Positions 812-51,140 of a stretch of DNA of 53,787 nucleotides are shown in pieces. The position numbers were made by a program, and so were the translations under genes. The notes below the pieces were generated by a model. That model made no database searches and was not told the DNA's origin. It saw only the letters and a program-made list of their open reading frames with translations. How positions within the stretch are numbered: position 1 is the stretch's first letter; every line of letters begins with the position of its first letter. Source of the stretch: Methanomassiliicoccales archaeon (lineage in GTDB: Archaea; Thermoplasmatota; Thermoplasmata; SG8-5; JAGLSY01); the NCBI GenBank assembly GCA_030672365.1, contig DAOVGM010000022.1, forward strand, positions 1 through 53,787, in the 5' to 3' direction.

Positions 812-960
812 CTCCAAAACCGAGCAGGTGAAGTCGATTTTTCTTATTTTCCGAATTTTTTTCTTTAGGAGCATCTTTCGCGTAAAATTCGCGAAAGATT
901 ATTTCGGGATGCAGAGCGACCCGAAATAACGCCAGCACAGGTTTTGGCAAAAGAAAAAAA
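812..960 (+). repeat. Family-A mosaic intergenic repeat, degenerate copy A8
   Basis: Contains CCGAGCAGGTGAAGTC (compare copy A3), the hairpin TTATTTCGGG-ATGCAGAGCGA-CCCGAAATAA (compare A4 and A5) followed by ACGCCAGC, and an extra 10-bp hairpin ATCTTTCGCG/CGCGAAAGAT. Confidence 0.6.
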
Positions 961-998
961 CTCTCCGGAACTTGCTTGACACAGACAATTATCCTCAT
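961..998 (-). pseudogene. Relic duplicate of the etfB 5' end (codons 1-11, MRIIVCVKQVP)
   Basis: About 34 nt at 964-998 match 770-804 with about 4 mismatches. The relic ATG at 998 lies 21 nt after the acyl-CoA dehydrogenase stop, which is operon-like spacing. The 63-aa ORF 807-998 otherwise translates repeat DNA. Confidence 0.55.
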
Positions 999-3734: not shown

Positions 3735-4046
3735 AAGTGCTAGGCACCGGACTGGTCGCCCGCACCTCATGCCGATGGTCAATGACCTTCTCGGTTCCGC
3801 CACCCCATGAGCGTTGGTAATATGCGGTTAAGCTGCTCCCGTCAGGGCCTCGCCCTTTCCCCGCAATCAAGAAGGACCACACCGCCCTCCGGCTGTGCGC
3901 GCCAATCACCTCCAACCCCGTGGGACAGAACCTCATAGTCGGGCACTGGTCCGACATAAAGCCGGTTACGCCGCATCCGGCCGTCACCCCCGCTAACGAC
4001 GATTTCGGTGTATAAGGGGACGCCGAGCCCCCCGGTTAGCCTAGCA
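3735..4046 (-). ncRNA. ffs: Signal recognition particle RNA (archaeal 7S/SRP RNA)
   Basis: The minus strand reads GCUAGGCUAACCGGGGGGCUCGGCGUCCCCUUAUACACCGAAAUCG, an archaeal Alu-domain 5' signature. It also contains AGG-CCC-UGAC-GGG-AGCAGC (helix-8-like) and a 3' GGUGCCUAGC that pairs with the 5' GCUAGGC. About 312 nt and GC-rich; the only ORF inside is an implausible 90-aa one. Confidence 0.85.
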
Positions 4047-5184: not shown

Positions 5185-5940
5185 ATGGAAGATGAAGCTC
5201 CTGTTACTGTTTCAGTTAAGAAAATTATTGCCTTAATTCTTGTTGTTGTCATAGTCATCTCCGCTATCTGGGTGGTAAATATTTTGTTTACTTCAAGTGA
5301 CCCTCCGTGGATATTCTCTCACCCAGAGGTAACTGTCAATAAATCTTCAACCAACAATATTACTACTGAAACAATCATAGCGATGAATGATTGGGCGGAA
5401 AATTACCACGATAAGTATCATATTGACAGTATGTATATCACCATTACCACGGCGGTGGAGAACGATGAAACATATTTATTTTCCATATCAATTGATTTCA
5501 TTCCAGATTTAAATGTTTATACGTCAGAGAATGGGGGTGCTGGACCGATAACTGATGGTTTAATAAGTGTCTTCTCTGGCAACAGTATTACCTTATCAGA
5601 TGATTCAATCATATCAGAAATCACGAAAAATCGTGATTGGAAAATTACAGACAATGATCAAGTGTATTATATTGAAGAAGTAAGTGGTGTCCTTGAAGTC
5701 CACCTGCCTGGAACAGAATATGGTGAGTACTATTATCATGACAAATTATCCACTATTATTGAAAACGATGCTTGTCCAGTGGGCTATTTTGATGTTGATG
5801 GTGATTCATACCTGTCTGTTGGTGATTACTTTATTTCAGATGTTAGCAAGATAACTGAAGAATTTGATTATTTTGGATTTTATTATAAACTTAAATTTGG
5901 TGATCATTGGGAAAGCATCATAAAAAATGAAGGGGGCTAA
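5185..5940 (+). CDS. Hypothetical membrane-anchored protein (single N-terminal TM) in an AT-rich island
   Basis: 251-aa ORF with the hydrophobic segment IIALILVVVIVISAIWVVNILF. Rich in N/I/Y/D. Visibly lower G+C than its neighbours (not computed). I recognise no family. Confidence 0.6.
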   Translation: MEDEAPVTVSVKKIIALILVVVIVISAIWVVNILFTSSDPPWIFSHPEVTVNKSSTNNITTETIIAMNDWAENYHDKYHIDSMYITITTAVENDETYLFSISIDFIPDLNVYTSENGGAGPITDGLISVFSGNSITLSDDSIISEITKNRDWKITDNDQVYYIEEVSGVLEVHLPGTEYGEYYYHDKLSTIIENDACPVGYFDVDGDSYLSVGDYFISDVSKITEEFDYFGFYYKLKFGDHWESIIKNEGG

Positions 5941-5944: not shown

Positions 5945-6030
5945 TTTCGCTCCGAGCAGGCCTTTGGGGGTTGGGAAAGGCTAGCGGAGGAGCGGGGTGG
6001 GGGGATAATCAAAAGTTTGGGGCGGGCAGC
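5945..6030 (+). repeat. Family-A intergenic repeat, short form (A1)
   Basis: GCTCCGAGCAGGCC-TTTGGGGGTTGGG...AGCGGAGGAGCGGGGTGGGGGG...GGGGCGGGC. Lies between convergent genes. Confidence 0.7.
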
Positions 6031-7229: not shown

Positions 7230-8417
7230 TTATCTCCTTTTGGATTGGAGGAGTTCGGTCACTTTTTCCTCGAGCACCTTCGCCGGAATGTCCGGCAGAG
7301 AGATGAGCTTTGTCTTGCCGAGATGCCCCTTTCCGGAGAGCCGGAGCCCGATGAAACCGTGGCCTTCCAGCTCTTTCAGATACTCCCAGAACTGTGTGTG
7401 GCCGCGCACCCGCTCCTCATACTCTTCGCACGCGACAGCGTAGCCCTTCTCCGACTGGCCGGTGGTGATGTAAGCCTTGCCTTTGATCTCATGGCTAATG
7501 CCGAGAAGTGTGAGAAGTTTGTGCATGTCCAGCATTCTCAACTTGTCCTCGGTGATCACCGAATGGGTCATGGCCTTGGCGGCGCGGACGTGGTCTGCAT
7601 TGACGAAATCCAAGCTTTCGTCGTTCGCTATGCGTCCCGCATTTTCCAAAAGCTCGATTGCGAATCTGGCATCGCCCCATTCGGACGCTATTTCCGCAAT
7701 GAGTTCTGTGGTTTCTTCCTCGATTGTGCCCGGATAAAACGCGAGCTCGACCCTATCGGCCAGTATTCCCCAGAGCTGCTCCTTGTCGTATTTATCGAAC
7801 TTGATGGTATTGGTGCGCTTGAACGTCGACAATGTCGCGGCGTCCAGAAACTCGATGAGGTCCTTTTGCGATATGAGAATGAGCGAAAGGCGATGCTCGC
7901 CTGCTATCCGTTCCTCGTCGAATCGCGTGAGGCTGTAGAGGAGGTCCGATCCTGATTTTTTCACGAGGACATTGGCCTCGTCAAGCACGACTATCAGATG
8001 CACTTTTTGGCGGTCGACGTGCTTTCTGAGGATTTCCAGCATTTCTGTAGTCGAAAACCCGCGGTCTGGGAAGTGTGGGTCGAAGCGCTCCAAAATTTTT
8101 AGAAGGACGGCGGAGGGCGTGTTTCTGGCCCTGCAATTCACGATTGCGAACTCGATCGCCTGGGACTTCTCCCTTGCCCATTCCTGGAAGTCCAGGCAGA
8201 ACCGTTTGGAAAGCACGGATTTGCCTGTGCCGACATTGCCCGTGAGAAAGGCCTTCTGCCCGACGTTCGAATCGACAATTTGCCTGAAAATCGAGAAGAG
8301 CTGTTTCATCTCCCTGTCGCGGTGCACCAGCCTGTCTGGCACATAATCGAAAGTAAGCTTGCTCGCGTCCGAAATGATGTTCTGCTGATAATCCTCGAAT
8401 GGGGCCATCGACACCAT
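7230..8417 (-). CDS. cdc6: Orc1/Cdc6 replication initiator
   Basis: 395 aa. Walker A GNVGTGKSV, Walker B IVVLDEAN, and a C-terminal winged-helix region (FWEYLKELEGHGFIGL). Confidence 0.93.
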   Translation of the reverse strand: MVSMAPFEDYQQNIISDASKLTFDYVPDRLVHRDREMKQLFSIFRQIVDSNVGQKAFLTGNVGTGKSVLSKRFCLDFQEWAREKSQAIEFAIVNCRARNTPSAVLLKILERFDPHFPDRGFSTTEMLEILRKHVDRQKVHLIVVLDEANVLVKKSGSDLLYSLTRFDEERIAGEHRLSLILISQKDLIEFLDAATLSTFKRTNTIKFDKYDKEQLWGILADRVELAFYPGTIEEETTELIAEIASEWGDARFAIELLENAGRIANDESLDFVNADHVRAAKAMTHSVITEDKLRMLDMHKLLTLLGISHEIKGKAYITTGQSEKGYAVACEEYEERVRGHTQFWEYLKELEGHGFIGLRLSGKGHLGKTKLISLPDIPAKVLEEKVTELLQSKRR

Positions 8418-8446
8418 AATCTATTCGGCCAAAATAATAGTTTTCC

Positions 8447-8683
8447 TTAGTCAATGTCAAGGGCGATCAGGGTCTCGGTCGAAACTATGCCCTCCACCTC
8501 TCTAATTTCGCGCACGACCATCGAGAGGAGCTTTGCGATGTCCTCGCCCTCGACAATCGAAATTATATCATAACTGCCTGTTACTGAATGAACTTCCCGG
8601 ATGCCTGGCACCTGCCTGAGTTCTTTGAAGACGGGCTCCAGGCTTCCAGCATTGACCTTGATTAACACGAAAATTTTTTCCAA
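8447..8683 (-). CDS. Stand-alone Lrp/AsnC ligand-binding (RAM) domain protein
   Basis: 78 aa. IFVLIKVNAGS...VHSVTGSYDIISIVEGED...VEGIVSTETLIAL matches the AsnC_trans_reg domain pattern. Confidence 0.75.
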   Translation of the reverse strand: MEKIFVLIKVNAGSLEPVFKELRQVPGIREVHSVTGSYDIISIVEGEDIAKLLSMVVREIREVEGIVSTETLIALDID

Positions 8684-8699
8684 ATGAACACCACTATGA

Positions 8700-8894
8700 T
8701 TATTTCATCGAAATTGCATCGTTGGGACACTCGCTCACGCAAGCCTCGCAGTCTATGCATTCGTCTGGGTTGACCTTGGCAACATCGTTCATTGATATTG
8801 CTTCCTGAGGACATGCGTCAACGCATACTCCGCATCCGATGCAATCATCTGGATTTACAACAGCCGGCATAGTTAACATCCTGTATATCGACAC
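8700..8894 (-). CDS. 2x[4Fe-4S] ferredoxin
   Basis: Two CxxCxxCxxxCP motifs (CIGCGVCVDACP and CIDCEACVSECP). An alternative start is the MPAVV ATG at 8870. Confidence 0.85.
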   Translation of the reverse strand: MSIYRMLTMPAVVNPDDCIGCGVCVDACPQEAISMNDVAKVNPDECIDCEACVSECPNDAISMK

Positions 8895-8977
8895 GGAATG
8901 GACAACCCCGTAAATATGCTTTTTGGATAGGCCGCGAACCTTTTAAATACGGGAAAAATCATATACATCATAGTCGA

Positions 8978-9217
8978 GTGAAAAGGCACTCGAACGGAGG
9001 CGGTTATGTGGGCATAGTCGACAAGTATGATTTGAGGAGACTGGACAAGTCGAATATTGAGCTGGCTTTCGATTGTCCGAATTGTAGGAAAACGCGCATC
9101 AGCATGAACGGCGGTAATGACGAAAAATTCTGGAACGAGGTCGAATGCCCGAAATGCAATTCGCAGATAGTGCTGGACGGATTCAGTCTGGCTGTTATCA
9201 AAAACAACGGAAATTGA
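8978..9217 (+). CDS. Small zinc-ribbon protein (hypothetical)
   Basis: 79 aa with CPNC...CPKC cysteine pairs. The GTG start is uncertain. Confidence 0.5.
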   Translation: MKRHSNGGGYVGIVDKYDLRRLDKSNIELAFDCPNCRKTRISMNGGNDEKFWNEVECPKCNSQIVLDGFSLAVIKNNGN

Positions 9218-9245
9218 TTAGATAAATTTTAAATCAAAGGCACCC

Positions 9246-10259: not shown

Positions 10260-10270
10260 ATGTCTGGCCG

Positions 10271-10466
10271 CGTCGAGCAGGCTTTTGGGGGAAGGGAAAA
10301 CTATTTCGTGTCAATTGCACGAAATATTACTTCGGGATGCGAAGCGAACCGAAGTTATCTGTCGTGACCGAAGGCGCGACAGATCATGTTGGAATGCAGA
10401 GCAATCCAACATGCCGCCAGCGCAGACGCGGAAGGGTGGGGGGCGACCCATCTATCGGGGCGGGCC
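10271..10466 (+). repeat. Family-A intergenic repeat, long mosaic form (A5)
   Basis: GTCGAGCAGGC-TTTTGGGGGAAGGG, then four hairpin modules: H1 ATTTCGTG-TCAATTG-CACGAAAT; H2 TTACTTCGG...CCGAAGTTA; H3 CTGTCG...CGACAG; H4 CATGTTGGA...TCCAACATG. Ends with GCCAGCGCAGACGCGGAAGGGTGGGGGG...GGGGCGGGC. Confidence 0.8.
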
Positions 10467-10510
10467 ACAAACAACCAGAACACTGGCCTGGGTGGGCTAA
10501 GATAACATAA

Positions 10511-15551: not shown

Positions 15552-16709
15552 TTATACTACCCTTTTCTTGGCGACCTTCTTTGGCTCGTCCTCGTCGCCG
15601 CCTTCTTCGCCGCCTTCCTCGCCGCCCTCGCCCTCTATCTTGGTTCCGCAGGCGTAGCACATGATGGCATCGTTTGAGAGCATCGTACCGCAGGACGGAC
15701 ACGGAATCTCTTCATCGCCGCCGGCTTCTTCCGATGCTGGCTCTTCTTCGCCACCTTCTTCGCCGCCCTCGCCCTCAATCTTGGTTCCGCAGGCGTAACA
15801 CATGACGGCGTCCTTGGAAATCATGGTGCCACAGGATGGACATGCGATTTCATCGTCGCCCTCCGCTGCCTCTTCTGCCGGAGCTTCTTCATCTGCTGGA
15901 GGTTCTTCATCTGCTGGAGGTTCTTCCTCGGCAGGGGCCTCTTCGTCCTCTGCCGGGGCTTCTTCATCTGGCGGAGCCTCTTCATCAGCAGGAGGTTCAT
16001 CTTCGGTAGGGGCTTCTTCATCTGCTGGCTCCTCCTCGGCAGGGGGGGCTTCGTCTTCCATCGGCGGCGGTGCCGGCGCGGCATCGATATCTGCCTTCAT
16101 GCCCCTGAGCGATTCCTCTTTCTCGATGAGCTGCTGCTCCTTCTCCATGAGGCGCTTGCCGTCCTCGATAATCTTCTCTTTGCTCTGATTGAGCTCCTCT
16201 TCCTCTCTGGCCAGCGCTTTCTCTCGCTCTACGGTCTCCTCGCCCTTTGCCACGAGTTTTTCGACGACCTCTTTCAGCTCATTGTAACCGGAAGCCATCT
16301 CCTCTTCCCTGGCGATTATTGCGTTTCTCTTCTCCGTAATCTCGCCTTCCAGCTTATTGGCTTCCTCCATTTTAACATAAATCTCTTCCTCTCGTGATGC
16401 AAGCTCCTTCTGCTTGGTCCCGATTTCCGCCTCTCTGGTCTCGAAACCGGATTCCAATTCCACGATTCTGGCCTTCTCCGCTTCGAAGGCCTGCTTCTCG
16501 GCATTGACCTCGTTCAGCTTGCTTTCAATCTCATCCTGTTTGGAACTGAGGTCTGCCTCTTTGGCCTCCACCGAGTTCTTGAGCTCCTCGATTTCGCGCT
16601 CTTTCTCGTTCAAAGTCTCTTCTTTGGCTCTCAGCTCTTCCTCTTTACCTTTAAACTGTTCGGCTTGCTTTTGCATTACTTCCCATATCGATGGTTCTTC
16701 TTCGCCCAA
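15552..16709 (-). CDS. Coiled-coil / acidic-repeat / double zinc-ribbon protein (partner of KaiC-like ATPase I)
   Basis: 385 aa. About 200 aa of heptad-rich E/K sequence, then PPADEEAP-type acidic repeats, then two tandem CPSCGTM[IL]S..A[VI]MCYACGTKIEGEGGEEGGEE units (CxxC-x10-CxxC). Confidence 0.75.
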   Translation of the reverse strand: MGEEEPSIWEVMQKQAEQFKGKEEELRAKEETLNEKEREIEELKNSVEAKEADLSSKQDEIESKLNEVNAEKQAFEAEKARIVELESGFETREAEIGTKQKELASREEEIYVKMEEANKLEGEITEKRNAIIAREEEMASGYNELKEVVEKLVAKGEETVEREKALAREEEELNQSKEKIIEDGKRLMEKEQQLIEKEESLRGMKADIDAAPAPPPMEDEAPPAEEEPADEEAPTEDEPPADEEAPPDEEAPAEDEEAPAEEEPPADEEPPADEEAPAEEAAEGDDEIACPSCGTMISKDAVMCYACGTKIEGEGGEEGGEEEPASEEAGGDEEIPCPSCGTMLSNDAIMCYACGTKIEGEGGEEGGEEGGDEDEPKKVAKKRVV

Positions 16710-20891: not shown

Positions 20892-20974
20892 GTCAGGGGG
20901 TATGGGGAAGGGTTTATTTATCCTATTGGAGGGGTTCCTGAAAGTAATATAATGTTTGGGGGCAGATGCTAATC

Positions 20975-21058
20975 CGCTCCGAGCAGGCCTTGGGGGGTTT
21001 GGGCAAGGCCAGCGGAGGAGCGGAAGGGTGGGGGGAGGAGGTACTGGCTGGGGTGGGA
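20975..21058 (+). repeat. Family-A intergenic repeat, short form (A2)
   Basis: CCGCTCCGAGCAGGCC-TTGGGGGGTTTGGGC...GCCAGCGGAGGAGCGGAAGGGTGGGGGG...GGGGTGGG. Lies in a divergent promoter region. Confidence 0.75.
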
Positions 21059-22847: not shown

Positions 22848-22874
22848 TTATAAGAACAAGCCAGATTGGTTGAC

Positions 22875-22952
22875 GCCGAGCAGGTGAGTCAGGGGAAGGG
22901 GACGAACCAGCGGAGGCGTCGGGTGGGGGGCCAACCTATCGTTTGGGGCGGG
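22875..22952 (+). repeat. Family-A intergenic repeat, short form (A3)
   Basis: GCCGAGCAGGTGAGTCAGGGGAAGGGG...CCAGCGGAGGCGTCGGGTGGGGGG...GGGGCGGG. Confidence 0.7.
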
Positions 22953-25005: not shown

Positions 25006-25425
25006 TTACGGTTCAAAACCATGCTGCTCCAACCGCTCCGAGCAGGCTCTGGGGGGGGTTGGGCATCTGTCGTGACCACTGGCGCGACAGATCATGTTGG
25101 AATGTGAGGCAATCCAACATGACGGCCAGTGGCCCGACATAGGGTTCCCCTCGGGCTCTTTCAACCAAAATGCAACTCCTCGTGAGTTCAGCTTCACACA
25201 TCTCCGGGGCCCACCCCCGGCTGCGTTTCCGGGGCCGGCTTCGTAGTGCTTTCTGAAGCGGGTGACGTATCCAGCGATTTTGTTTCGCATTTGCACGGTC
25301 GTGACGTCTGTCATCTCAGCTACCATCTTCTTGTTGTGCTGGTAGTCGTCCGTGAACTTCTCTGGATACCGCTTCACCAACTCGATAGCTACTCTTTTGA
25401 TATAGGTCGGCCTTATATTTCCCAT
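25006..25425 (-). CDS. rps17e: Ribosomal protein S17e, with a ~75-residue C-terminal extension read through repeat A6
   Basis: [38 protein letters not shown]...[11 protein letters not shown] is canonical S17e (normally about 60-70 aa). The ORF has no stop until 25006 and runs across the family-A repeat. Confidence 0.85.
25033..25160 (+). repeat. Family-A intergenic repeat (A6), 5' module plus hairpins H3 and H4, lacking the usual 3' G-rich module
   Basis: CCGCTCCGAGCAGGCTCTGGGGGGGGTTGGGC, then ATCTGTCGTGACC-ACT-GGCGCGACAGAT, then CATGTTGGAATGTGAGGCAATCCAACATG. Confidence 0.75.
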
Positions 25426-25586: not shown

Positions 25587-27848
25587 ATGGCTCTGTTCGG
25601 CAAGAAGAAGAAAAAGAAAGATTCTGAAGCAGAAGATAAAATCGGTGACATGGGGGCGCTGACCGACGCGAAATCCGGCTTCCATTTTGGCAGGGACAAG
25701 GACGAACCAGAGGAAGAACCGACAGAAGAAGAGTTTTATGATGACGAAGACGACGATGTAGACGGAGTAGTTTGCCCGGTTTGCGAAGAATCTTCCCCGC
25801 CCGGAACCGAGGAGTGCGTCCATTGCGGCAACGCGCTGGATGATTCATTGGGCTTCCTGGGTGCAGAGCCTGAAGAGGAAGACGTGCCCGAGCCCGAAGA
25901 ATCGGACATCAAAGATGTCACCGAAGTCGAAGCTGAGTCAGAGGTTTTAGAGGATTCTGTAGAAGAAGTTGTTGAGGGAGAGCCAGACTTTGTAGAAGCT
26001 GAGACTCCCGACGAGGAAGAGGTCGTCGAGGAAGAAGAAATCGAATATGTCGAAGAGCCGGTAGAAGAAGCTTCTATCGGTGAGGAACCGGTAGAAGAAG
26101 AGTTGGAATTCATGCTCGAGACTGAAGACGTGCCTGAACCAGAAGAGCCAGCTGCTCCAGTCATGTCCGACAAGGAGAGAAAAGATGTAGAAAAGGCGGT
26201 CAATAAGAAAATCAAGTCACTGTACAAGGATTTGAAGAAGGGTAAAATCACGCAGGATGATTATGACCAACAAGTTCGCGATGTCAAGATTTCATTAGGA
26301 TTGCTGGCTCCCGAGCCGGTAGAAGAGTTTGTTGAGGAGGACATCAAAGATGTCACCGGTATCGAAGATACCACCGATATCGAAGAGACTCCACCGCCGC
26401 CTTCTGAACCGGAGCCAGAACCTCCAGCTGTTGAGGAAGTTGTGGAAGAGGTCGCCGAGGAAATTATCGACGAGCCAGATGAGGACATCGGAGATGTCAC
26501 CGGTATCGAAGATGCCACCGATATCGTACTCTCCGAAGAGCTCGTTCGCGCCGAGGGCATCGAAGGTATCACCGAAATCGAGGAGGAGTTCGAACTCGAT
26601 GCGGAGGACCTTCTGGGAGAGGTTGTGGCAACAGAGAATGGACTCGAAAACGGTTTCGACATCGATGATATTTTGCCTCCCGAGCTTTTGATTCTCGAAG
26701 AGCTGGAGTTTCTTCCTGAAGAGGTCGTGGAGGAAGAGACGGGGCCTGCAGTAGTACCTGATGGGAAAGTCGAGGCGGAGCCGGAAAAGGTCGGGTTCAT
26801 GGAAACCAGAAGAAAGCGGAAGGAGAAAATCACCAAACTCGACGTAAGAGAGGCCGAACTTGAAACTGTAGAGACTAAGCTGGAGGAAAGAAAGGAGGAG
26901 CTTGAGGAGGAAGCCACAAAAGTCGAAGAGGACATCATCAGGGCTCAGACTGAGTTGCAAATCGCCCAGACTAAAACCCAGGTGCTGGATGCCCGCGAAG
27001 CCGAATTGAGCCGGCGCGAGCAGGAGCTCGTGGCCGGTCAGGAAGAATTGGATGCGAAGAAGGAAGAGGTTCGCGAGATATCTAAGCGAATGAAGGGCAG
27101 AAAAGAGGAACTGGATACCCGCGAAGAAACCATGACGTCCAGAGAGGACCAGTTCAATGAAAGGCAGAGAATTCTTACCCAGCGAGAGGATGATTTCCGT
27201 GAGAAGGAAGCAACTTTCAGGGAGCAAAGAGAGGTAATTCTTGAAAAAGAGAGGGGGCTTAAGGAGAAGGCAAGCGAGCTGAATACCCAGGAAGACGAGC
27301 TGGACGAGGAAAGGATGGCTGCCAGACGGCGTGCTAGTGAACTCGACGATGTTCGCAGGGACCTTGATGCCAGGGAGCGCGAATTCGAGGGCCGTGAGAG
27401 GGAGATCAACGAGAATGAAGAGGATATCCAGCAACGCGAGGAATCGCTTTCGACGAAAGAGGCAGACCTAAACAGGATGAGGGAAGATGCCATTGCCCTC
27501 GAGAACGAGTTGAACACCAAGGGCGGAGAGCTGGCCGGCCAGGAAGCGGACCTCAGGCAGAGAGAGGATAGGCACGAGGAATGGAAGAAGCGGCTGGAAG
27601 AGAGAGAGGAGGATTTGGCCACGCGGAGCAACGACCTCGAAAGTAAGCTGGCTAATTTACGTGCTCAGGAAAGAGACGTCGAAGACAGGAAAGGCCGAAT
27701 CAAGGAAAAGGTCATGGAAATCAAGGAGCTGGAAAGTGATACTCTGCGCAGAAAGAAGGACGTCGACAAGATTGAGCTCTTGTTGATCGAGAAGGAAACC
27801 GAGTTATTCGAGAAGGAGCAGGATATCGTCAGGAAGGCCGCGAAATAA
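25587..27848 (+). CDS. Zinc-ribbon / hyper-acidic / long coiled-coil protein (cassette gene 1)
   Basis: 753 aa. CPVC-x10-CVHC ribbon near the N-terminus, about 350 aa of D/E-rich sequence with three DI[KG]DVT[GE][IV]E repeats, and a C-terminal ~330-aa heptad-rich region with recurring [RK]EEEL/REDD units. Confidence 0.8.
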   Translation: MALFGKKKKKKDSEAEDKIGDMGALTDAKSGFHFGRDKDEPEEEPTEEEFYDDEDDDVDGVVCPVCEESSPPGTEECVHCGNALDDSLGFLGAEPEEEDVPEPEESDIKDVTEVEAESEVLEDSVEEVVEGEPDFVEAETPDEEEVVEEEEIEYVEEPVEEASIGEEPVEEELEFMLETEDVPEPEEPAAPVMSDKERKDVEKAVNKKIKSLYKDLKKGKITQDDYDQQVRDVKISLGLLAPEPVEEFVEEDIKDVTGIEDTTDIEETPPPPSEPEPEPPAVEEVVEEVAEEIIDEPDEDIGDVTGIEDATDIVLSEELVRAEGIEGITEIEEEFELDAEDLLGEVVATENGLENGFDIDDILPPELLILEELEFLPEEVVEEETGPAVVPDGKVEAEPEKVGFMETRRKRKEKITKLDVREAELETVETKLEERKEELEEEATKVEEDIIRAQTELQIAQTKTQVLDAREAELSRREQELVAGQEELDAKKEEVREISKRMKGRKEELDTREETMTSREDQFNERQRILTQREDDFREKEATFREQREVILEKERGLKEKASELNTQEDELDEERMAARRRASELDDVRRDLDAREREFEGREREINENEEDIQQREESLSTKEADLNRMREDAIALENELNTKGGELAGQEADLRQREDRHEEWKKRLEEREEDLATRSNDLESKLANLRAQERDVEDRKGRIKEKVMEIKELESDTLRRKKDVDKIELLLIEKETELFEKEQDIVRKAAK

Positions 27849-28693: not shown

Positions 28694-28716
28694 TCAAATT
28701 GACAAGGGGTAACCTG

Positions 28717-30012
28717 ATGGCTAAGAAAAAAGGTGGTTCAAAGAAAAAGAGAACGTCTTCCAAATCGAAGAAGAAGGGAGCGCCTAAATCGAAGGCGAGG
28801 CAAAAGGCAAAGAAGGAAGAACCGGTAGTTGCGCCGGAGCCGGTCGAAGAGCTTCCTCCCCCGCCGCCACCGCCCGAGCCAGAGGAACCCGACATCAAAG
28901 ATGTCACCGGCATCGAAGATGCCACCGATATCGAAGATATCACCGATACCGAAGGTGTCACCGAAATCGAGCCCGAGGAAGAAGAGTCGAAACTCAGTGA
29001 TGCTGTTTCGGCTGTCATAGGTGATGATGATGCGAAGCCAAAATCCAAGGAGAAGAAGTCGCCGACCCAGCAAAAGAGAGAAAAATTAATTCTCCAGTGG
29101 ACTGCCGAGGGTTACAATGTCGACCACCTTGAAGACCTTTTGGCCAGCGGTGTGAAGAAGGGCGTGAAAAAGGCCTTCGACGATTTTGAAAAGGGCATCA
29201 GCAGAATTGAGGAAATCAAGGAGGAATTGGACGGTGCCAACATCGCCGACGTCGAGGCAGAGTATAACGATTTAACGGCCATGTTATCATCCCCCGGAGA
29301 CATCGGGAACATTGAGACCGCTTTCGTTAACTTGAAAGCCCGGATCAAGGCCAAGGAGTTGGAGAAGGAACTGGACGGCATGAAACTGCCGCAGTTTAAA
29401 GATCAGATTGACGAAATCCGTGAAATGCTGGCTGACCCAGATAGAGTCGACGAAGCCGAGAAGGCCATCGAAGACTTCAAGAAGGGTTATAAGGAAGCTT
29501 ATTTCGAAGATAGTGTGGCCTCGCTTGTTACGGGCCCGGAAACCGCAAAACCGAAGGCGGCGAAACCGACTGCTCCGAGACCCGGCGCGGTAAAAACCCC
29601 GATGACAGTCCGCGATATATTCTTGCTTTACAGAAACGGCAAGTTCATTTCCCACCATACTGGCCGTGTCGTTCCGAAGGAGGAGCAGGAGCAGTTGTTC
29701 GCAGACCTGAAGACCGGCCGCAACTACCTCAAATCACCGAATTACAAGCCCAAAAAATTGAATGTCATCTCTGTCAACAACAGGAAAATCCTCGTTCAGG
29801 GCGGACTGTTTACCGTCGTGGTCATCATCGCCGAGGGCGAGGTCAATCCGTGGACAGAAAAAATCGTCGGAAAGGTTCTCGGCCTCATGGAGAAGGAGGA
29901 CCGGGTTCCGCTGCAGAACTGGAACGGCGACGTTGCCTCGCTGAAGAGTGCCGGCAAGTACATGACCGCCCTTCTGTACGCGACGATGAAGCTCGGGAAA
30001 AAGGCAGATTAG
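28717..30012 (+). CDS. Lys-rich / acidic-repeat / helical protein with a C-terminal roadblock/longin-like domain (cassette gene 3)
   Basis: About 431 aa from the ATG at 28717 (the ORF opens at TTG 28699). Order of segments: KKKGGSKKKR..., PPPPPPP, DIKDVTGIEDATDIEDITDTEGVTEIE, helical middle (LILQWTAEGYNVDHLEDLL...), and C-terminal IFLLYRNGKFISHHTG...FTVVVIIAEG domain. Confidence 0.75.
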   Translation: MAKKKGGSKKKRTSSKSKKKGAPKSKARQKAKKEEPVVAPEPVEELPPPPPPPEPEEPDIKDVTGIEDATDIEDITDTEGVTEIEPEEEESKLSDAVSAVIGDDDAKPKSKEKKSPTQQKREKLILQWTAEGYNVDHLEDLLASGVKKGVKKAFDDFEKGISRIEEIKEELDGANIADVEAEYNDLTAMLSSPGDIGNIETAFVNLKARIKAKELEKELDGMKLPQFKDQIDEIREMLADPDRVDEAEKAIEDFKKGYKEAYFEDSVASLVTGPETAKPKAAKPTAPRPGAVKTPMTVRDIFLLYRNGKFISHHTGRVVPKEEQEQLFADLKTGRNYLKSPNYKPKKLNVISVNNRKILVQGGLFTVVVIIAEGEVNPWTEKIVGKVLGLMEKEDRVPLQNWNGDVASLKSAGKYMTALLYATMKLGKKAD

Positions 30013-32655: not shown

Positions 32656-34209
32656 ATGAGTAAAAAACTGACAATTGAAGATATGCAGAAGCTTGCAGAG
32701 TCGAGAGGTGGGAAGTGCTTATCAAAGGAGTACGTAAACACTAAAAGAAAAATTATCTGGCAATGTGGCAATGGTCATACATGGGAAGCCTCACCTCAAA
32801 GTGTTAAACAAGGTGGCTGGTGTCAATATTGTGCTAACATTCAGTTAAGCAAAGAGAGACGATTGGATTTTAACATTGTTTTACATAAAATCAAAGAACT
32901 GGACGGAGAATATATTTCAGGAAAATATAGGAATAATCAATCAAAATTATTTATTCGATGCAAAGAAGGCCATGAATGGCAAACAAACTACGCTAATATT
33001 CAGAACGGGAGATGGTGTCCAATATGCGCTAGAATTAAGCAAGCAGATCGACAAAGGGGTAATATTGACGAGATGAAAGAAATTGCGAAACAAAGAGGTG
33101 GCATATGCATCTCAGAGAAATATGTAGATTCTCACACACCCCTCAACTGGAGTTGTGCTGAAGGTCACGAGTGGTTTTCATCACCTCTTTCTGTAAAAAA
33201 TCAAGGAACATGGTGTCCAGAATGTAATATTTTCATCGGTGAAAAGATTTGCAAAGAAATTTTCACTATATTATTTAATAAAAAATTTCGAAAAGCAAGG
33301 CCAGAATGGTTAATTAATCCAAAAACAGGCAGATGTATGGAACTCGACGGATATAATAAGGAATTAAAATTAGCTTTTGAACACCATGGAATTCAGCATT
33401 ATTTTCAAGATGAAAAGCATTTTCACAAAGTTAATAAATTCAGAGACCAGCAAGAAAGAGATATTATCAAAAAGAAATTATGTGCTGAACAGAAAGTCAA
33501 ATTAGTGGTTATACCATATTATGTTCACCATAATCGGAAGTTGCAATTTATTATAGACCAGTGCAAATCATATGGTTATAAAATTGATAATATTCCCCTT
33601 GAACTTTATGATTTTAAAAATCTCTCTATCTATAAAAAAGAACGACTTAAAGAAATAAGGGAAATCGCAGAGTCTAAAGGTGGTAAATGTTTAAATGAGT
33701 CGTTTATAGACTATCAAACAAAAATGAAATTTCAATGTGAAAATGGGCACATATTTTCAATGTCAAGTGCACAAATAAAATATCATAAAAGCTGGTGTCT
33801 TGAATGTGCTGGCATAAAACGATATACAAAAAATGATATGATAAAGTTGTCAAAATCACGGAATGGAAAATTCTTGTCTGATGACTTTACTAATGTTAAT
33901 GAAATCCATGAATGGCAATGTTCAAAGGGTCACCGATGGAAAACCCGGCCTGGGAATATAATCAAAGGCCACTGGTGTCCTCATTGTGCGGGTCAAGGCA
34001 AACTATCAATTGAATTGATGAAGCAAATAGCCAGTGAACGAGGGGGAGAGTGCCTTTCAGATGTTTATGTAAATGCAAAAACAAAATTACATTTTAAATG
34101 TGAAAATGGGCATGAATGGTGGGCACAACCGTACCATATCAAAAAAGGTGCTTGGTGTCATTATTGTTCAGGAAGACGCAAGTGGCCACCAAGCGTCCCG
34201 AGCAGGTAG
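32656..34209 (+). CDS. Six-fold zinc-ribbon repeat protein with a central PD-(D/E)xK-like nuclease core (AT-rich island)
   Basis: 517 aa. Six units of the type GGxC[LI]S..Y.....(W/F)xCxxGHxW......[IV]xxGxWCxxC, arranged 3+3 around ELDGYNKELKLAFEHHGIQHY...VKLVVIPY. The ribbons resemble the 'probable zinc-ribbon' (DUF4379-type) domain. Visibly AT-rich. The last ~10 codons and the stop lie in repeat A7. Confidence 0.75.
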   Translation: MSKKLTIEDMQKLAESRGGKCLSKEYVNTKRKIIWQCGNGHTWEASPQSVKQGGWCQYCANIQLSKERRLDFNIVLHKIKELDGEYISGKYRNNQSKLFIRCKEGHEWQTNYANIQNGRWCPICARIKQADRQRGNIDEMKEIAKQRGGICISEKYVDSHTPLNWSCAEGHEWFSSPLSVKNQGTWCPECNIFIGEKICKEIFTILFNKKFRKARPEWLINPKTGRCMELDGYNKELKLAFEHHGIQHYFQDEKHFHKVNKFRDQQERDIIKKKLCAEQKVKLVVIPYYVHHNRKLQFIIDQCKSYGYKIDNIPLELYDFKNLSIYKKERLKEIREIAESKGGKCLNESFIDYQTKMKFQCENGHIFSMSSAQIKYHKSWCLECAGIKRYTKNDMIKLSKSRNGKFLSDDFTNVNEIHEWQCSKGHRWKTRPGNIIKGHWCPHCAGQGKLSIELMKQIASERGGECLSDVYVNAKTKLHFKCENGHEWWAQPYHIKKGAWCHYCSGRRKWPPSVPSR

Positions 34210-34446
34210 GGGACGGCCAGCGCAGGGACGCAACGGTTAGGGGATGGTTGGGGCATGCCCCGTCTGTAAGGGCGGGGTTAATTCCTCGCCGAATTATCGA
34301 CTTCGGCGAGTGGGTGATGGACAAACTGGCTCTGATTTGAGAGCCCCGTGTGTGAGCACGGGGGTGTCAAATATAACATTGAGCGAAAGGGTGGGGGGCC
34401 AACCCATTGTTTGGGGTGGGTAAAAACAACCATCCGGGGCGGGCCA
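34196..34446 (+). repeat. Family-A intergenic repeat, long divergent mosaic (A7)
   Basis: CCCGAGCAGGTAGGGGACGGCCAGCGCAGGG..., hairpins GGGGCATGCCCC, CTCGCCGAA-TTATCGAC-TTCGGCGAG and CCCCGTG-TGTGAG-CACGGGG, then AAGGGTGGGGGGCCAACCCATTGTTTGGGGTGGG...GGGGCGGGC. Confidence 0.75.
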
Positions 34447-37428: not shown

Positions 37429-37537
37429 CGCCATCGAGCGGGCTCGAACCGCTGACCTTCCGGTCTCCGCGTCTGATGGCGAGCTTGTCTCGCCGTCAGT
37501 TAACAGCCGGATGCTCCACCTGCTGAGCTACGATGGC
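37429..37537 (-). tRNA. tRNA-Asn (anticodon GUU) with a ~36-nt intron at the canonical 37/38 position
   Basis: The minus strand reads: GCCATCG-TA-GCTC-AGCAGGTG-GAGC-A-TCCGG-CTGTTA, then the intron ACTGACGGCGAGACAAGCTCGCCATCAGACGCGGAG, then A-CCGGA-AGGTC-AGCGG-TTCGAGC-CCGCT-CGATGGC-G. All four stems pair and the intron contains its own hairpin (BHB-compatible). Confidence 0.88.
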
Positions 37538-39483: not shown

Positions 39484-39595
39484 AGTTGAATGAGTGAGCA
39501 GAGCGAATACATTCAACAGCACCGAACGAAGAGAGGTGATGCAGAATGAGTGAGAGTAGAGAACACATTCAAAAGCTCCGACCGAAAGGAGGAGA
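39484..39595 (+). repeat. Family-C intercistronic hairpin repeat, two tandem copies (C1, C2)
   Basis: TTGAATGAGTGAGCAGAGCGAATACATTCAACAGCACCGAACGAA and CAGAATGAGTGAGAGTAGAGAACACATTCAAAAGCTCCGACCGAAAGG. A third copy lies at 51096-51140. Confidence 0.6.
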
Positions 39596-39600
39596 TTATT

Positions 39601-40302
39601 ATGGCTGAGGAGAAAGTAGCAACTGGGATTCAAGGCTTAGACGAAATGCTCGGCGGGGGCATTCCCGCAGGTCACATACTCGCGGTTCTGGGCTCGTGCG
39701 GGACAGGAAAGTCGACTCTCACGCTCCAATACATCTGGCAGGGCCTTCAGAACGGAGAAAAAGCAATTTTCATCAGCCTCGAAGAGGATGAGAATTCCAT
39801 CAAGAAGAATGCCGCTAATTTCGGCTGGGACTTACAGCCGTTCATCGACAACAACTCTCTCTCTCTAGTTAAGCTCGAGCCCGCGGACGCAAAGAACACG
39901 GTCCAGAAGATAAACAGCGAACTGCCAGGATTCATCAAGGAGTTCGGTGCCAAGAGGGTGGTGCTGGATTCAGTGTCCCTGCTCAGCATGATGTTCGACA
40001 ACGAGTCCGAGAAGAGAACCAATCTATTCGGTTTGTGCGACCAGATAAAGGAGACTGGCTCCACCGCGTTGTTCACGGCGGAGGTCAAGGACGACAACCC
40101 GAACGTCTCGCGGGGCGGCCTCGTGGAGTACGTGGCAGACGGCGTTCTCCTCCTGCGATATCGGGAATCGGCAGACTCAAGTGAGGTCCAGCTGTCATTG
40201 AGAATTGTAAAAATGAGGCGCGCCCAGCACTCCCGTAGAATCAAACCTTACAGCATTACGAGCAAAGGCATCGAGGTGCATACCCAAGCAGAAGTTTTTT
40301 GA
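39601..40302 (+). CDS. KaiC/RecA-like ATPase, canonical P-loop
   Basis: Start at the MAEEK ATG with GGAGG upstream. GIQGLDEMLGGGIPAGHILAVLGSCGTGKSTL, Walker B RVVLDSVSLL, and LRIVKMRRAQHS. Confidence 0.88.
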   Translation: MAEEKVATGIQGLDEMLGGGIPAGHILAVLGSCGTGKSTLTLQYIWQGLQNGEKAIFISLEEDENSIKKNAANFGWDLQPFIDNNSLSLVKLEPADAKNTVQKINSELPGFIKEFGAKRVVLDSVSLLSMMFDNESEKRTNLFGLCDQIKETGSTALFTAEVKDDNPNVSRGGLVEYVADGVLLLRYRESADSSEVQLSLRIVKMRRAQHSRRIKPYSITSKGIEVHTQAEVF

Positions 40303-40767: not shown

Positions 40768-43700
40768 ATGAGAAGAGGATTTACCATTGCACTCGTATTG
40801 TCTTTGATTGTTTCCGGATTCGGAGTCATAGGTCTGGCCATAACCGGCTCGGCCAGCAATGATAACTCTGAGGTCATGGCGCCTGTCGCTCCACACGCGC
40901 CGATAAGGATTGATGGGGATGCGGATTTCTTAACCGTTGACGGTGTGACAAATAATGCTACTGGCAATGGTACAGTTTGGAATCCTTGGATAATTGAGAA
41001 CTGGGACATCAATGGAACTGGGGTTGGTTATTGTATTTATGTCGGGAATACGACAGATTATTTTGTTGTGAGGAATTGTAGTTTGCAAAATGCCAGCGGT
41101 GTTGAAAGTTTTCCTTATTACAGAAATGCTGGATTGCATTTATACAATAGTACAAATGGATTAATTAGAGATAATAATGTTTCATTCAACGGTATTTGCC
41201 TATATGTCCAGCAATCTTCCAATAATTCAATTATTAATAATACAGCTATTTCCTTCAAGCAACCCCTGAATAGGGGTGTCTTTCTCTATGGGAGCGAAAA
41301 TATTAGTGTAAAAAACAATAAAATATCAAAACAAGATGAATGCATTTCAATTTTTGGAAACTTTAATAATATCACAAACAACACCGTATTTGATGCGGCC
41401 TTTGGATTTAAACTTGAAGAATCCAATAACAATTCTATTATTAATAACAGTATCTCTGAATGTGAACTGGTGGGTGTTTGGTGTGGTGGACTTATCGATG
41501 GTTCTAACAACAACACCATAATTCATAATTACTTCATTGACAATGGCAACAACGCCATGGATTTCGGTAATAATTTCTGGGACAGTGGCTATCCCTCCGG
41601 GGGCAACTACTGGGCGGATTATACTTGGGTTGATCTCTTTCACGGCCCGGACCAGAACCTCACTGGCTCTGATGGAATCGGCGATACAAATTACACATTT
41701 GCCACAGGTGTTGACAATTATCCTTTGTTGTTTGAAACAGATTCTCCATTCGCCCTCGACCAATCCCCGAATGGGACGGGGATTTCGATTGCAACAAGTA
41801 TTACAATTTCCTGGAATGAAACAATGAACTGGACATCCGTTGAAAATGCGTTCAATTTTACAGATAATATAACTGTTTGGAGTTCTGCAGATGGGGCTTG
41901 GATGTATAATTCAACCACTAATGTTTCTACCTTCAATCCAAATTCGGACTTGGCCTATAATACAACCTACTGGGTGAATGTTAATATTACTGCAACAGAC
42001 GTTGCTGGTAATGCATTGGATCAAGACAAAAACGGAACTGGTGGATATTGGCCAGTGGATGTCTTATCATGGAGTTTCACGACCATGTTGGAACCGGAAT
42101 CCATACAGCCATTCATCAATTTCACATCACCCAACGGCACCTACGAGCCCCTCGGCGTCAACTTCACAATCGAATGGAACGAGACGATGAACTGGGCGTC
42201 TGTCAACGCCTCGTTCAATTATACCGATAATGTTACTGTCTGGACATCTGCAAACGGGACATGGACTCACAACTCCACATCCAACGTTTCTGTATTCGAC
42301 CCGGCAGCCCTTTTAGATTACGGGATGACATACTGGCTCACCGTAAACACGACCGCTACCGACGTCGCCGGCAATCCTCTCGCCGCCAACTTCACCTGGA
42401 ATTTCACCACAGAGCTGGCCCCGCCGATAGTGATGCTCACCAGTCCGGCTGATGCCGTTGTCGAAGTCAACCCTTACAACAACATCACTATCGTGTTCAG
42501 CAACGAGATGAACACGACGAGCGTCGAGGCCGCGTTTTCATACACGAACGGAACTGCCAGCTACAATCAGACCAACGGCACGTTCACTTGGACTGCCGGG
42601 AACAAGACGGCGTCCTTCGACCCGACAGACGATTTGGAGTTGAACATGACCTACAATTGCAGTCTGAATGGCTCGCTGGCTGCCGATATTTACGGAAAAC
42701 TCCTAGACGGAAATAAGGATACAGTCGGAGGGGACAATTACACGTGGAATTTCACTACCTGGCCTCACACTCCCCCGCCCGAGGTCAACGCCACCTATCC
42801 GTTCAACGGTGCAATTAATATCAATGTCAACACGTACATCATGCTGGCGTTCGACTGGCCGATGAATAATGCCATTACCGAGAGCGCGTTCAGCATGACA
42901 GATGGAAGCACCGTTATCGATGCAAACGACGGCGACTTCACTTGGTCGATGGGCAACAAGCTGATGACCTTCCAGCCGGACGTTTATTTGCTCTACAATA
43001 CGACCTACACGGTGCGGCTCCTCGGAACTGCGGAGTCCGTTTCACCGTACGAGGCCTCGCTTGACGGCGACTCCGATGGTGTGGCGGAGGGGAGCCCCGC
43101 AGACGATTTCGTCTTCAACTTCACGACGTCTCTGGTCCCGCCCACTATCCTGTTGACCGAGCCGGAAAACGGTGCCGTGAACGTCGAAACAACTCTGAGC
43201 CAGATAACCTTCGAGTTCAGCGCGGAGATGGATAATGTCTCGGTTCAGAATGCTATGTTGTTTACACCCACCCTTCCGCATAATAAAATGTGGTCTATGA
43301 GTAACACGTTGCTAACCTTGACACCAACTGTGAATTTGTCATACAATGTGACGTACATCATATCATTTGATGCGAACATCGCGAAGGACCTGGCCGGTAC
43401 GAAATTGGACGGAAACGGTGACGGTGCCTACGGCGACGATTTCCAGCTATGGTTCACGACGGAGATGGCGCCGGACACCTCCATTCCGACGATCGTGAGC
43501 GTGTTTCCGCCAGCCAACAGGACCGACGTTCCAGTTCACACTTACATCAGGGTTACTTTTAGCGAACCGATGGACAATGCCAGTATGCTACAGGCTTTCA
43601 CACTTAGAAATGATACCAGCACAATTCTGGGAAATCTCTCTTGGAATGAGGATTATACCCGTTTTATATTCCATCCGGCTCAAAATCTTTCGGCTAATAC

Positions 43701-44196: not shown

Positions 44197-44574
44197 AAAG
44201 GGTTGTCCCTCGGCCGTAACAGGTAGCATCATCGTAAGCTCGGCTCTCTCCGCGCCCTGACCCTGGCCGAGGGAATGTTGGACGTCCGGGTTGTCTTCCT
44301 CTCATCCAGAGGTGTCACACCTTAGTCAAGGAGGGACCCATAAAGACGTCCAGCTCCCGCCTGCACCCCGTATCATCGTATCAACGGGGCCTTCTGAGCA
44401 GAAGCATCCTCCAATTGTGCCTCATAGGTCATATAATTTTCGATTGGATTTATCATGCTGACTTACGCATGATTTTTAGAAAAGTATTTATATAATTACT
44501 TCATGTTGCTTTATAATCTATCTCTGTAAATAAAAAATGGGATGTCGGAAGGGATATTGATTGGAGAGATAAAT

Positions 44575-51098: not shown

Positions 51099-51140
51099 AT
51101 GAGTGAGCAGAAGCGAACACATTCAACAGCCCCACATGAA
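51096..51140 (+). repeat. Family-C intercistronic hairpin repeat (C3)
   Basis: TTGAATGAGTGAGCAGAAGCGAACACATTCAACAGCCCCACATGAAATGGGGGG, immediately before the next start codon. Confidence 0.55.

Follow-up and report, generated by a model that had tools for sequence, protein, structure and literature searches.

The 53,787-nucleotide stretch analysed here (hereafter the window) is the entire 53.8-kb contig DAOVGM010000022.1 of an uncultured Methanomassiliicoccales archaeon (assembly GCA_030672365.1). Its genes are housekeeping genes (AlaRS, Kae1, Orc1/Cdc6, Trm1, QRPTase, KaiC-like ATPases and others), and it also encodes an archaeal signal recognition particle RNA at 3738-4046 (-) and one intron-containing tRNA. 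Interspersed among them, at about one per 5-6 kb, are copies of a non-coding element of about 80-250 nt whose shared scaffold folds as a hairpin of two covarying helices separated by an internal loop that is invariant. The copy on which we focus, a long form at 10268-10464 (+), has scaffold motifs enriched over chance and an RNA fold z-score of -5.8. Its outer helix, P1, joins 10268-10274 to 10425-10431 (CCGCGTC/GACGCGG) with 7/7 positions paired; inside it lie the two junction strands, GAGCA (10275-10279) and AGCGCA (10419-10424), and an inner helix, P2 (10280-10286 with 10297-10300 and 10416-10418), which bears the apical G-rich loop GGGGGAAGGG (10287-10296). Four hairpin modules fill 10301-10413, namely H1 (10301-10326, loop GUCAAUUGC), H2 (10327-10357), H3 (10358-10383) and H4 (10384-10413), and the 3' tail consists of G-box1 (10434-10443), a spacer and G-box2 (10457-10464). 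Copies with a G5-NN-G3 loop and a GGGYGGGGGG...GGGGYGGG tail, including this one, are called type A below.

A stricter census of the window yields ten copies and one fragment in 53.8 kb, all intergenic or at gene ends and modular in composition. The eight copies listed in an earlier note on this DNA are all present on the + strand at, or within a few bases of, the positions given there, and its description of a genuine intergenic multi-copy family with neither coding capacity nor terminal inverted repeats is borne out; what it missed are a full copy at 49733-49829 (-) and a 5' fragment at 49888-49908 (-). Measured against dinucleotide-preserving shuffles, the motif CGAGCAGG has 11 matches in the window where 1.98 are expected, a count reached by 0 of 100 shuffles, and CCAGCGSAG has 5 (0.99 expected), the hairpin-loop motif GGRATGYRNRGCRAYCC 5 (0.07 expected) and the joint scaffold pattern 3 (0.00 expected). 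Repeat finding recovers the element families and the common modules (families D5, D8-D13 and D18).

The scaffold can be followed most simply in the short type A copies, which lie on the + strand at 5947-6026 (core 5947-5995, G tail 5996-6026; covariance model score 63.6 bits, E=7.6e-17), 20974-21057 (core 20974-21023, tail 21024-21057; 69 bits, E=1.7e-18) and 22871-22952 (60.8 bits). Energy minimisation of short copies returns an identical fold every time: a 7-bp P1, an internal loop with GA-GC-A opposite A-GC-GSA, a 7-bp P2, a 10-11-nt G5-NN-G3 loop and an unpaired G-rich tail. The three-part scaffold of the earlier note therefore has the motifs it described, but these are not loose sequence boxes, as the flanks of GAGCAGG and CCAGCGSAG pair and covary. 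The bases 5' of GAGCAGG pair with those 3' of CCAGCGSA through sequences that differ from copy to copy, for example CCGCTCC/GGAGCGG, CCGCGTC/GACGCGG, GACGCC/GGCGTC and GCGTCCC/GGGACGC. P1 is a hypervariable 7-bp helix in which only the closing C:G pair is invariant, P2 consists of GG/CC plus 5-9 variable pairs, and the 3' tail begins 0-4 nt past P1. Between the two helices, the asymmetric internal loop 5'-GAGCA/5'-AGCGSA is invariant (junction bases G8 A9 G10 C11 A12 and A39 G40 C41 G42 A44). P2 often includes tandem G.A pairs: a G.A/A.G step (GGYGAGC/GCGAGCC) is found inside it in half of the copies, among them 22871-22952 (GGUGAGUC/GACGAACC). The same GAGC/GCGA step recurs in P1 of many copies of the second subtype described below and in effect makes up the junction.

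Similarity among copies, which might have collapsed under proper alignment statistics, held. In an alignment of 38 type A copies drawn from the window and about 14 Thermoplasmatota metagenome-assembled genomes (MAGs; alignment A2), 88.9% of cells pair compared with 35-44% in slid controls, 140 cells are doubly changed compared with 42 in shuffles (0 of 500 shuffles reach this number), and compensatory change is seen at 11 of 16 pairs. We hold the two-helix architecture with high confidence, and GAGCA/AGCGSA, a new and conserved junction motif that covariation supports very strongly, can be read as tandem G.A pairs, two G:C pairs and an A.A mismatch. The alignment also gives the folding strand: G.U cells number 29 and A.C cells 4, with a further 85 G.A/A.G cells to which nothing on the other strand corresponds, and since G.U lies far above A.C, the G-rich strand is the one that folds. 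Fold energy is uninformative as a strand test, with z of about -6 for both strands.

A core covariance model scores the short copies in the window and the MAG loci at 39-69 bits (E 3e-9 to 2e-18). In agreement with the earlier note, which did not recognise the family as a described element, Rfam 15 gives no match on any copy, searched over the whole window at the gathering score and at E<=10 and over seven loci with permissive filters; the sole overlap is a spurious match to a long non-coding RNA (lncRNA) at E=6.8. Scanning the scaffold pattern across one genome per GTDB species matched at least 98 stretches, and this wider search, like the covariance model a check that had been proposed for the family, revealed further copies beyond the contig. 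Real matches occur in at least about 14 Thermoplasmata, Methanomassiliicoccales and "Methanobacteriota" MAGs, including Ca. Haladaptatiplasma, and P1 pairs at 5-7/7 positions (mostly 6-7) in the Thermoplasmatota matches. That G-runs are common and that the pattern also matched GC-rich bacteria such as Streptomyces might suggest chance similarity of G-rich low-complexity intergenic sequence, but the bacterial matches lie inside genes and pair at 1-6/7 positions, mostly 1-4, as chance matches do, and the motif counts of the window stand far above shuffles. We assign chance virtually no probability, and the split in P1 pairing together with the strong covariation has already refuted it. The pattern has no match in IMG/VR viral contigs, and so there is no sign of a viral origin.

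The second subtype, type B, has the P1, junction and P2 of type A with a U(4-6)CU(n)...U(n)CU(m) loop and an A(m)GA(n) tail. Its layout runs from a first U-tract (U1, U4-6 C U2-5) through a linker to a second (U2, U3-7 C U3-6) and, past P1' (the prime marking the 3' strand of a helix), to the A(m)GA(n) tail. To this subtype belongs the copy at 815-961 (+), which had been placed with the others in one G-rich family: it does have the common P1, junction and P2, but its loop is U-rich, its tail A-rich, and it has no G boxes. Its P1 joins 815-821 to 940-946 (CAAAACC/GGTTTTG), and U-tract 1 (836-850) and U-tract 2 (856-870) are followed by a private hairpin (871-899), H2 (900-929) and an A-rich tail, CAAAAGAAAAAAAC (948-961), that is complementary to U-tract 2 over 11 nt. 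In the type B copy at 49733-49829 (-) (P1 GGCTTTC/GAAAGCC, U-tract 1 UUUUUCUU, U-tract 2 CUUCUUUUU, tail AUAAAAAGAAG), the tail has an antiparallel Watson-Crick match of 11 nt to U-tract 2, whereas to U-tract 1 it has a parallel match of 8 nt and an antiparallel match of only 5 nt. The fragment at 49888-49908 (-), ACCGAGCGAGCAGGCTTAATC, is a type B 5' end directly upstream of this full copy.

Both window copies, along with loci L009 and L100 from other genomes, were recovered by the core covariance model, and a metagenome scan that placed no condition on the tail found about 19 further real type B copies on about 19 contigs, with A-rich tails in all. P1 and P2 covary no less strongly than in type A: across 21 type B copies (alignment A4), 88.3% of cells pair compared with 22-39% in slid controls, and 91 are doubly changed compared with 30 in shuffles. 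Over 9-13 nt, the tail is the reverse complement of the copy's own U2; the mean length of the longest perfect tail:U2 complement is 10.6 nt within copies, compared with 8.7 nt between copies (permutation p<1e-4). Lengths and C/G positions of tail and U2 covary from copy to copy: U7CU4 stands with A4GA7 in L009, U5CU6 with A6GA5 in L152, CU3CU3 with A3GA3G in L121, and a U2 with two Cs with a tail with two Gs in L136 and the (-) copy of the window. U1 matches the tail in the parallel register, which is the requirement for a Hoogsteen strand; this includes the asymmetric cases L156 (U6CU2CU against A6GA2GA) and the (-) copy of the window (U5CU2 against A5GA2), in which antiparallel U1:tail pairing is impossible.

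Loop kind and tail kind are strictly matched. U-loops carry A-tails in 23 of 23 copies, and G-loops carry G-tails, including all seven covariance-model matches that were unselected on the tail. A third subtype, type C (L015, L067 and L086), has a G5-hairpin-G3 loop; three of its five copies end in a GGGYGGG tail, giving exactly four G3 tracts (2+2), and the other two have longer G tails. Type A copies have two tracts of at least three Gs in the loop and four to five in the tail, which supplies the four tracts that an intramolecular G-quadruplex needs. The common denominator across lineages is a very stable structure directly 3' of P1. Past G-box2, several type A copies also have a semi-conserved stretch, (A)GAACAACCAG (10465-10500 and 34421-34435 in the window; L009 and L086), so the element may extend further 3' than G-box2.

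The geometry of type B bears on how loop and tail could meet. The linker from U2 to P2' has a median length of 0 nt and that from P1' to the pseudoknot a median of 2 nt, while P2 spans about 11 layers, roughly as many as P1 and the junction together. With P1, junction and P2 stacked coaxially, a linker of 2 nt would need to bridge over 20 layers, so that coexistence of all three helices demands a reversal of direction at the junction; we infer that such a reversal, laying P1 beside P2, would explain why the junction is invariant while the helices vary freely. We propose that the element acts as an RNA in which the conserved junction makes a sharp turn, sets P1 alongside P2 and so lets the 3' tail dock on the apical loop. 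Docking in type B would produce a pseudoknot, probably a U.A-U/C+.G-C triple helix, and type A, by analogy, would form a 2+2 G-quadruplex from the two loop G-tracts and the first two tail G-tracts. The docked fold would make a compact end that resists 3' exonucleases and may stabilise the element's own transcript or, where the element lies in sense, the upstream mRNA. This tail-docking, exonuclease-resistant RNA fold is the explanation we would put first, and we rate its chances as about even. RNA is favoured because of the G.U and tandem G.A content and because the layout resembles that of the element for nuclear expression (ENE).

In design, the U/A subtype is closest to the triple helices formed by ENEs with A-tracts, such as those of Kaposi's sarcoma-associated herpesvirus PAN RNA, MALAT1/MEN-beta and the double ENEs (dENEs) of plant and fungal transposons. 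Both have two helix-flanked U-rich strands with interspersed C and a downstream, genomically encoded A-rich tract with matching G, arranged as U1-U2-A; the A-tract has Watson-Crick complementarity to U2 and a parallel match to U1, and an association with mobile elements is likewise known from transposon ENEs. They differ in that the type B U-tracts lie in an apical rather than an internal loop, that a second helix (P1) and a conserved junction tether the tail, and that Hoogsteen pairing is only a candidate here. U-strands with a Watson-Crick A-tract are found in type B only, type A having G-tracts in place of U/A. In a 2026 review, the listed ENE triple helices come solely from viruses, lncRNAs and transposons of plants or fungi, the prokaryotic RNA triple helices are all in riboswitches, and no ENE-type element is reported for archaea or bacteria. 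The loop-tail matching described here suggests a self-capping RNA structure of a kind not reported before in either group. If tail docking is right, 3'-end protection by triplexes and quadruplexes would extend from eukaryotic viruses, lncRNAs and transposons to archaea, and as one scaffold carries either G/G or U/A loop-tail pairs, nature offers a "swap experiment" that makes the docking hypothesis directly testable.

Several observations weigh against this proposal. The parallel U1:tail match averages 8.3 nt within copies and 7.9 nt between copies (p=0.07), so that the Hoogsteen part is only suggestive. ViennaRNA predicts little or no quadruplex gain, with a model that cannot represent a long-range 2+2 arrangement of loop and tail, and its gquad option finds no gain for a quadruplex within the tail alone, given the long central loop. 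L036, L055 and L095 pair G-box1 with a downstream C-run instead. The U-tracts of type B are potential archaeal oligo-T terminators and could halt transcription before the tail is made. In tandem intergenic regions, 9 copies lie in sense and 11 in antisense by crude open reading frame (ORF) calls, and an orientation unrelated to neighbouring genes argues against a role purely in cis within mRNAs. No TATA box or TFB recognition element (BRE) lies at a fixed distance upstream of P1, and a broad AT enrichment at -45 to -20 vanishes when copies are split by context. Finally, neighbouring copies tend to share their strand (8/8 copies claimed earlier for the window are +, and 12 of 14 adjacent pairs overall agree), and such local co-orientation fits a replication-linked DNA process better.

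Position relative to genes is open to more than one interpretation. In the window, copies begin 7 nt past the stop codon of the + gene 5185-5940 (5947-6026) and 24 nt past that of the TctA transporter gene, in a convergent intergenic region (22871-22952); 10268 also falls within this range of 7-24 nt, and 34193-34443 overlaps the stop codon of the low-GC gene 32656-34209, so that four copies start at most 24 nt past, or overlap, the stop of a sense gene. Over 48 copies, the median distance to the end of an upstream same-strand gene is about 26 nt, and this closeness to stop codons fits a role at mRNA 3' ends. The copy at 20974-21057 occupies the divergent intergenic region between a DHH-family gene (-) and the TctA gene (+), that at 815-961 is antisense to both neighbouring genes, and that at 49733-49829 (-) precedes a small HVO_2753-like zinc-finger gene in the sense orientation. 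Tight placement at gene ends would also be expected if the element had been exapted as bidirectional punctuation, that is, as a terminator, insulator or RNA-processing site with type B supplying oligo-T on both strands and type A a stable block. Convergent intergenic regions are favoured in the window, the TctA-QRPTase convergent region is occupied by type A in the window and by type B in L100, and type B copies have T4-7 tracts on the sense strand and T-rich tracts antisense. In three metagenome copies, the neighbour is a convergent tRNA gene whose 3' end directly meets the element: at L133, L138 and L146, the A-rich tail adjoins the CCA end of an opposite-strand tRNA gene and, read on the tRNA strand, is an oligo-T tract directly after the tRNA. 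We nevertheless consider punctuation distinctly unlikely, as type A lacks T-tracts (no oligo-T terminator was found downstream of it, and T content there is 0.2-0.29), many copies lie in divergent or promoter-side intergenic regions, and a stop at U1 or U2 would leave P2', P1' and the tail untranscribed, yet these are structurally constrained.

An orientation independent of neighbours, together with AT-rich runs enriched at -45 to -20, is also what one might expect of independent small-RNA (sRNA) genes, a large paralogous family with its own promoters in which P1, P2 or the 12-14-nt spacer between the G boxes gives target specificity. Conserved loops with variable stems are known from tRNA and C/D sRNA families, and the spacer is hypervariable even between the near-identical cores of L038 and L049. 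This explanation appears very unlikely to us: the TATA/BRE at a fixed position is missing, about half of the copies begin less than 30 nt past an upstream stop codon, fragments and nested copies typify mobile DNA rather than gene families, and the spacer, tested in the 9 copies captured for a part as guide or pseudoknot strand, shows no complementarity to flanks or core that is specific to the copy (p>0.7).

The family has spread by copying, as seen in nested copies, fragments, near-identical cores, presence/absence and flanking duplications. A 5' fragment is followed by a whole copy in L038, L043, L070, L026 and L098 and, in the window, at 49888-49908/49733-49829 (-). L038 and L049 combine near-identical cores with unrelated flanks and unrelated spacers; in CAYRFL, there is a longer repeated unit with a common 5' part, AATCCTCATTCTT, and a 3' GGTCGGC...GCCGACC hairpin, and in L036 at least 70 nt upstream are shared as part of the repeated unit. 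Direct repeats of 31-49 nt, 75-95% identical, abut 7 of 23 type B copies. Six of the seven are well above shuffled controls, and that of L152 is weak, with an 11-nt exact core. Around 815-961, the repeat is 38 nt long (770-807 and 964-1001, 33/38 identical; family D19, score 25.5 against a null maximum of 10) and duplicates the start of an ETF gene (MRIIVCVKQ, - strand). No flanking direct repeat rises above the shuffled null in about 45 type A copies. The type B duplications imply mobility of the family, past or present. In form they are like variable target-primed or replication-associated duplications; their lengths are unusual and, to our knowledge, fit no known transposase chemistry, prokaryotic transposition included.

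Orthologous intergenic regions, whose comparison had been put forward as a check for presence/absence polymorphism, bear this out in part. The DHH-TctA region holds a copy both in the window and in RS_9_71 (locus L002; TctA 61% identity), the latter with a fully compensated P2 and with otherwise unalignable flanks. No copy lies upstream of TctA in the relatives L099, L104 and L105, and vertical retention and repeated insertion are thus inseparable. The comparison of L002 with L105 suggests presence/absence, although it is not clean, the upstream gene differing between them. At L108, near-identical type B copies in inverted orientation (8442-8534 (-) and 9006-9098 (+)) bracket a single 106-aa ORF (8602-8922 (-)), and may with it form a small composite unit.

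All of these signs of copying are compatible with a mobile element that works at the DNA level, as a single-stranded hairpin (for example on the lagging-strand template) recognised by a trans-acting HUH transposase or recombinase, with RNA effects incidental. Such an element would resemble the repetitive extragenic palindromic (REP) sequences of REP-associated tyrosine transposases (RAYTs), the ends of insertion sequences (ISs) of the IS200/IS605 type or integron attC sites. It would account for copies that are oriented independently of flanking genes and yet locally co-oriented, its outer helix, unpaired centre, inner helix and variable terminal structure are attC-like, and G.T wobbles, sheared G.A pairs, T.A-T triplexes and G-quadruplexes are all possible in DNA. 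What makes it somewhat unlikely in our view is that no transposase, integrase, Y1/HUH enzyme or RAYT is found among 40 window proteins scanned, that the ends have no conserved target tetranucleotide or cleavage motif, and that the 31-49-bp duplications match no known DNA transposase. Moreover, the helices are hypervariable while the loops are conserved, 16 copies in a single MAG having 11 different P1 sequences between them, which is unusual for recently transposed DNA, and the excess of G.U over A.C and the abundant tandem G.A are more typical of RNA. 

The earlier note had called the family MITE/REP-like or sRNA-like. [quoted passage not shown] Like REP/BIME sequences, the copies are short, abundant, intergenic, non-coding hairpins, often at gene ends, arranged in high-copy module mosaics with compensatory stem variation and no terminal inverted repeats. 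Unlike them, they are archaeal, lack a GTAG head (the bases 5' of P1 are unconserved) and a RAYT/Y1 transposase among the proteins scanned, have an invariant internal loop between two hypervariable helices, and show the G/G or U/A loop-tail matching that REPs do not have. With MITEs, including archaeal ones, they share small size, non-autonomy, multiple intergenic copies, nested insertions and presence/absence polymorphism. They differ in having no terminal inverted repeats (the sole pairing is that of P1, whose sequence varies by copy), no 2-10-bp target duplication (none in type A, 31-49 bp in 7/23 type B copies), no known parent IS, and hypervariable rather than near-identical helices. Integron attC sites are similarly strand-specific, conserve structure over sequence and have a terminal structure able to branch, but in attC the outer helix is conserved and the central loop variable, the reverse of what is seen here, and the element has housekeeping neighbours rather than a cassette array and lacks R/L boxes (GTTRRRY) and an integrase.

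Individual candidates were tried and set aside. An integron attC assignment was rejected for want of R boxes in the copies and of an integrase among the window proteins, and IS200/IS605-type ends for want of a conserved flanking tetranucleotide and of any TnpA or TnpB gene in the window. Kink-turns resemble the element in the GAGC/GCGA tandem G.A steps of P1, junction and P2 and in a geometry that needs a sharp bend, but a 3-nt bulge followed by G.A, A.G fits the junction in neither direction, S being G or C. In the archaeal bulge-helix-bulge, staggered 3-nt bulges flank a 4-bp helix, whereas here the unpaired bases face each other at one level and the central helix has 2 bp. The sarcin-ricin motif, SRP helix 8 and group II intron domain V, compared with the junction by sequence against their textbook consensus, do not fit the invariant bases.

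Long copies add hairpin modules to the scaffold. H1 to H4 are all present in the focal copy, H1 and H2 in 49926-50063, H3 and H4 at 25033-25122, and a private hairpin with H2 in 815-961; in all of these copies, there is a single insertion point between the apical loop and the 3' strand of P2, so that the modules turn P2 into the closing helix of a multi-branch loop. The copy at 49926-50063 (+) has P1 at 49926-49932 with 50023-50029, H1 at 49956-49981, H2 at 49982-50012, G-box1 at 50032-50041 and G-box2 at 50056-50063, and direct reading of the sequences shows two compensated changes between its H1 stem and that of the focal copy. In the long copy at 25033-25160 (+), the 5' half with G-loop (25033-25065), H3 (25066-25091) and H4 (25092-25122) are indeed there, but the 3' half is degenerate, with no intact 3' junction strand, no P1' and no G tail; its module region (family D18) is 87% identical to 10357-10416. 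Subsets of modules and private hairpins do lie between the scaffold halves of long copies, as had been described, except in 34193-34443 (+), whose extra hairpins follow P1' and thus the scaffold hairpin. Here a minimal core (34193-34231; 38.7 bits, E=2.9e-9) is followed by private hairpins, after which come another P1'-like remnant, G-box1 (34389-34398) and two copies of G-box2 (34413-34420 and 34436-34443), an arrangement that marks the copy as composite. Module loops are conserved; those of H2 and H4 are alike (GGRAUGYRNRGCRAYCC), and the two are one kind of hairpin, with a long stem, an A.A mismatch, UGC/GCR and a triloop. This loop motif occurs in 0 of 105 loci from other genomes, where H1 and H3 were not searched for separately. 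With the H2/H4 loop confined in this way, the modules look like lineage-specific peripheral expansions at one site, 3' of the apical loop, which describes them better than the module shuffling first suggested.

Combining these strands, one may imagine the element as transcribed, docking its own 3' tail by means of a U-turn junction as an archaeal counterpart of ENE/MALAT1 with a G-quadruplex version beside it, and copying as a non-autonomous element via RNA or a single-stranded intermediate that leaves 31-49-bp target duplications. As a whole, this joint reading is unlikely; if true, it would provide the first 3'-end-capping RNA structures, and possibly the first retroposition akin to that of short interspersed nuclear elements (SINEs), described in archaea. 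In any case, the element is a major genome feature in uncultured SG8-5-related Thermoplasmata of sediments and soda lakes that is missing from RNA and repeat catalogues. A covariance model of the family would improve annotation as well as MAG assembly and binning, because repeats of this kind probably break contigs in these lineages.

Some further features of the window touch on the element. Against about 52% GC overall, low-GC islands of 34-42% lie at 5185-5940 (+), 32656-34209 (+) and 41000-42000. Two of the islands consist of a single gene, without a Pfam match in one case and encoding a DUF4379 zinc-finger protein with internal 34-nt repeats in the other. Both genes directly precede an element copy (at 5947 and at 34193); possibly the elements mark where foreign genes were inserted. 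The Orc1/Cdc6 gene at 7230-8417 (-) is followed by an 830-bp stretch without a convincing ORF (8418-9245), which could be a replication origin. Beside this gene, a search for repeats like origin recognition boxes found none, only two weak 13-14-nt repeats. Element copies on both sides of 8418-9245 are on the + strand, so there is no orientation flip there, if the stretch holds an active origin.

Other observations concern the contig at large. Proteins of "Thermoplasmata archaeon" MAGs share 61-67% identity with the TctA transporter of the window, and the TctA of SG8-5 "Proteinoplasmatales" shares 54%. One window protein looked up by its exact sequence matched no recorded entry. Over its full length, the model of the H/ACA sRNA family HgcG/Pab40 matches 44199-44462 (-) below threshold (60 bits, with the gathering score at 77; E=8e-14); the sequence is probably a real but divergent multi-hairpin H/ACA guide RNA. 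A 109-nt tRNA at 37429-37537 (-), detected by Rfam (54.7 bits) and not called by ARAGORN, presumably contains an archaeal intron. A conserved motif of about 56 nt, AGNAGMGAACACATTCAAMAGC...GGAGGNGAT...ATG, at 39499-39554, 39555-39610 and 51109-51164, precedes the KaiC-like gene at 39550, in two tandem copies, and the unannotated gene at 51149, and looks like a shared leader or regulatory site. Upstream of an acyl-CoA synthetase-like gene (45546-47183) lie 53-nt direct repeats at 45215-45267 and 45413-45465 (TGGCTAGCGAAGCTTGCCG...) with 81% identity. Long acidic tandem repeats with 18-nt periodicity (DIKDVTGIED-like units) occur in the proteins encoded at 15552-16709 (-), 25587-27848 (+) and 28699-30012 (+), two of the three without a Pfam match, and repeat units are common to 26.3-26.6 kb and 28.9 kb.

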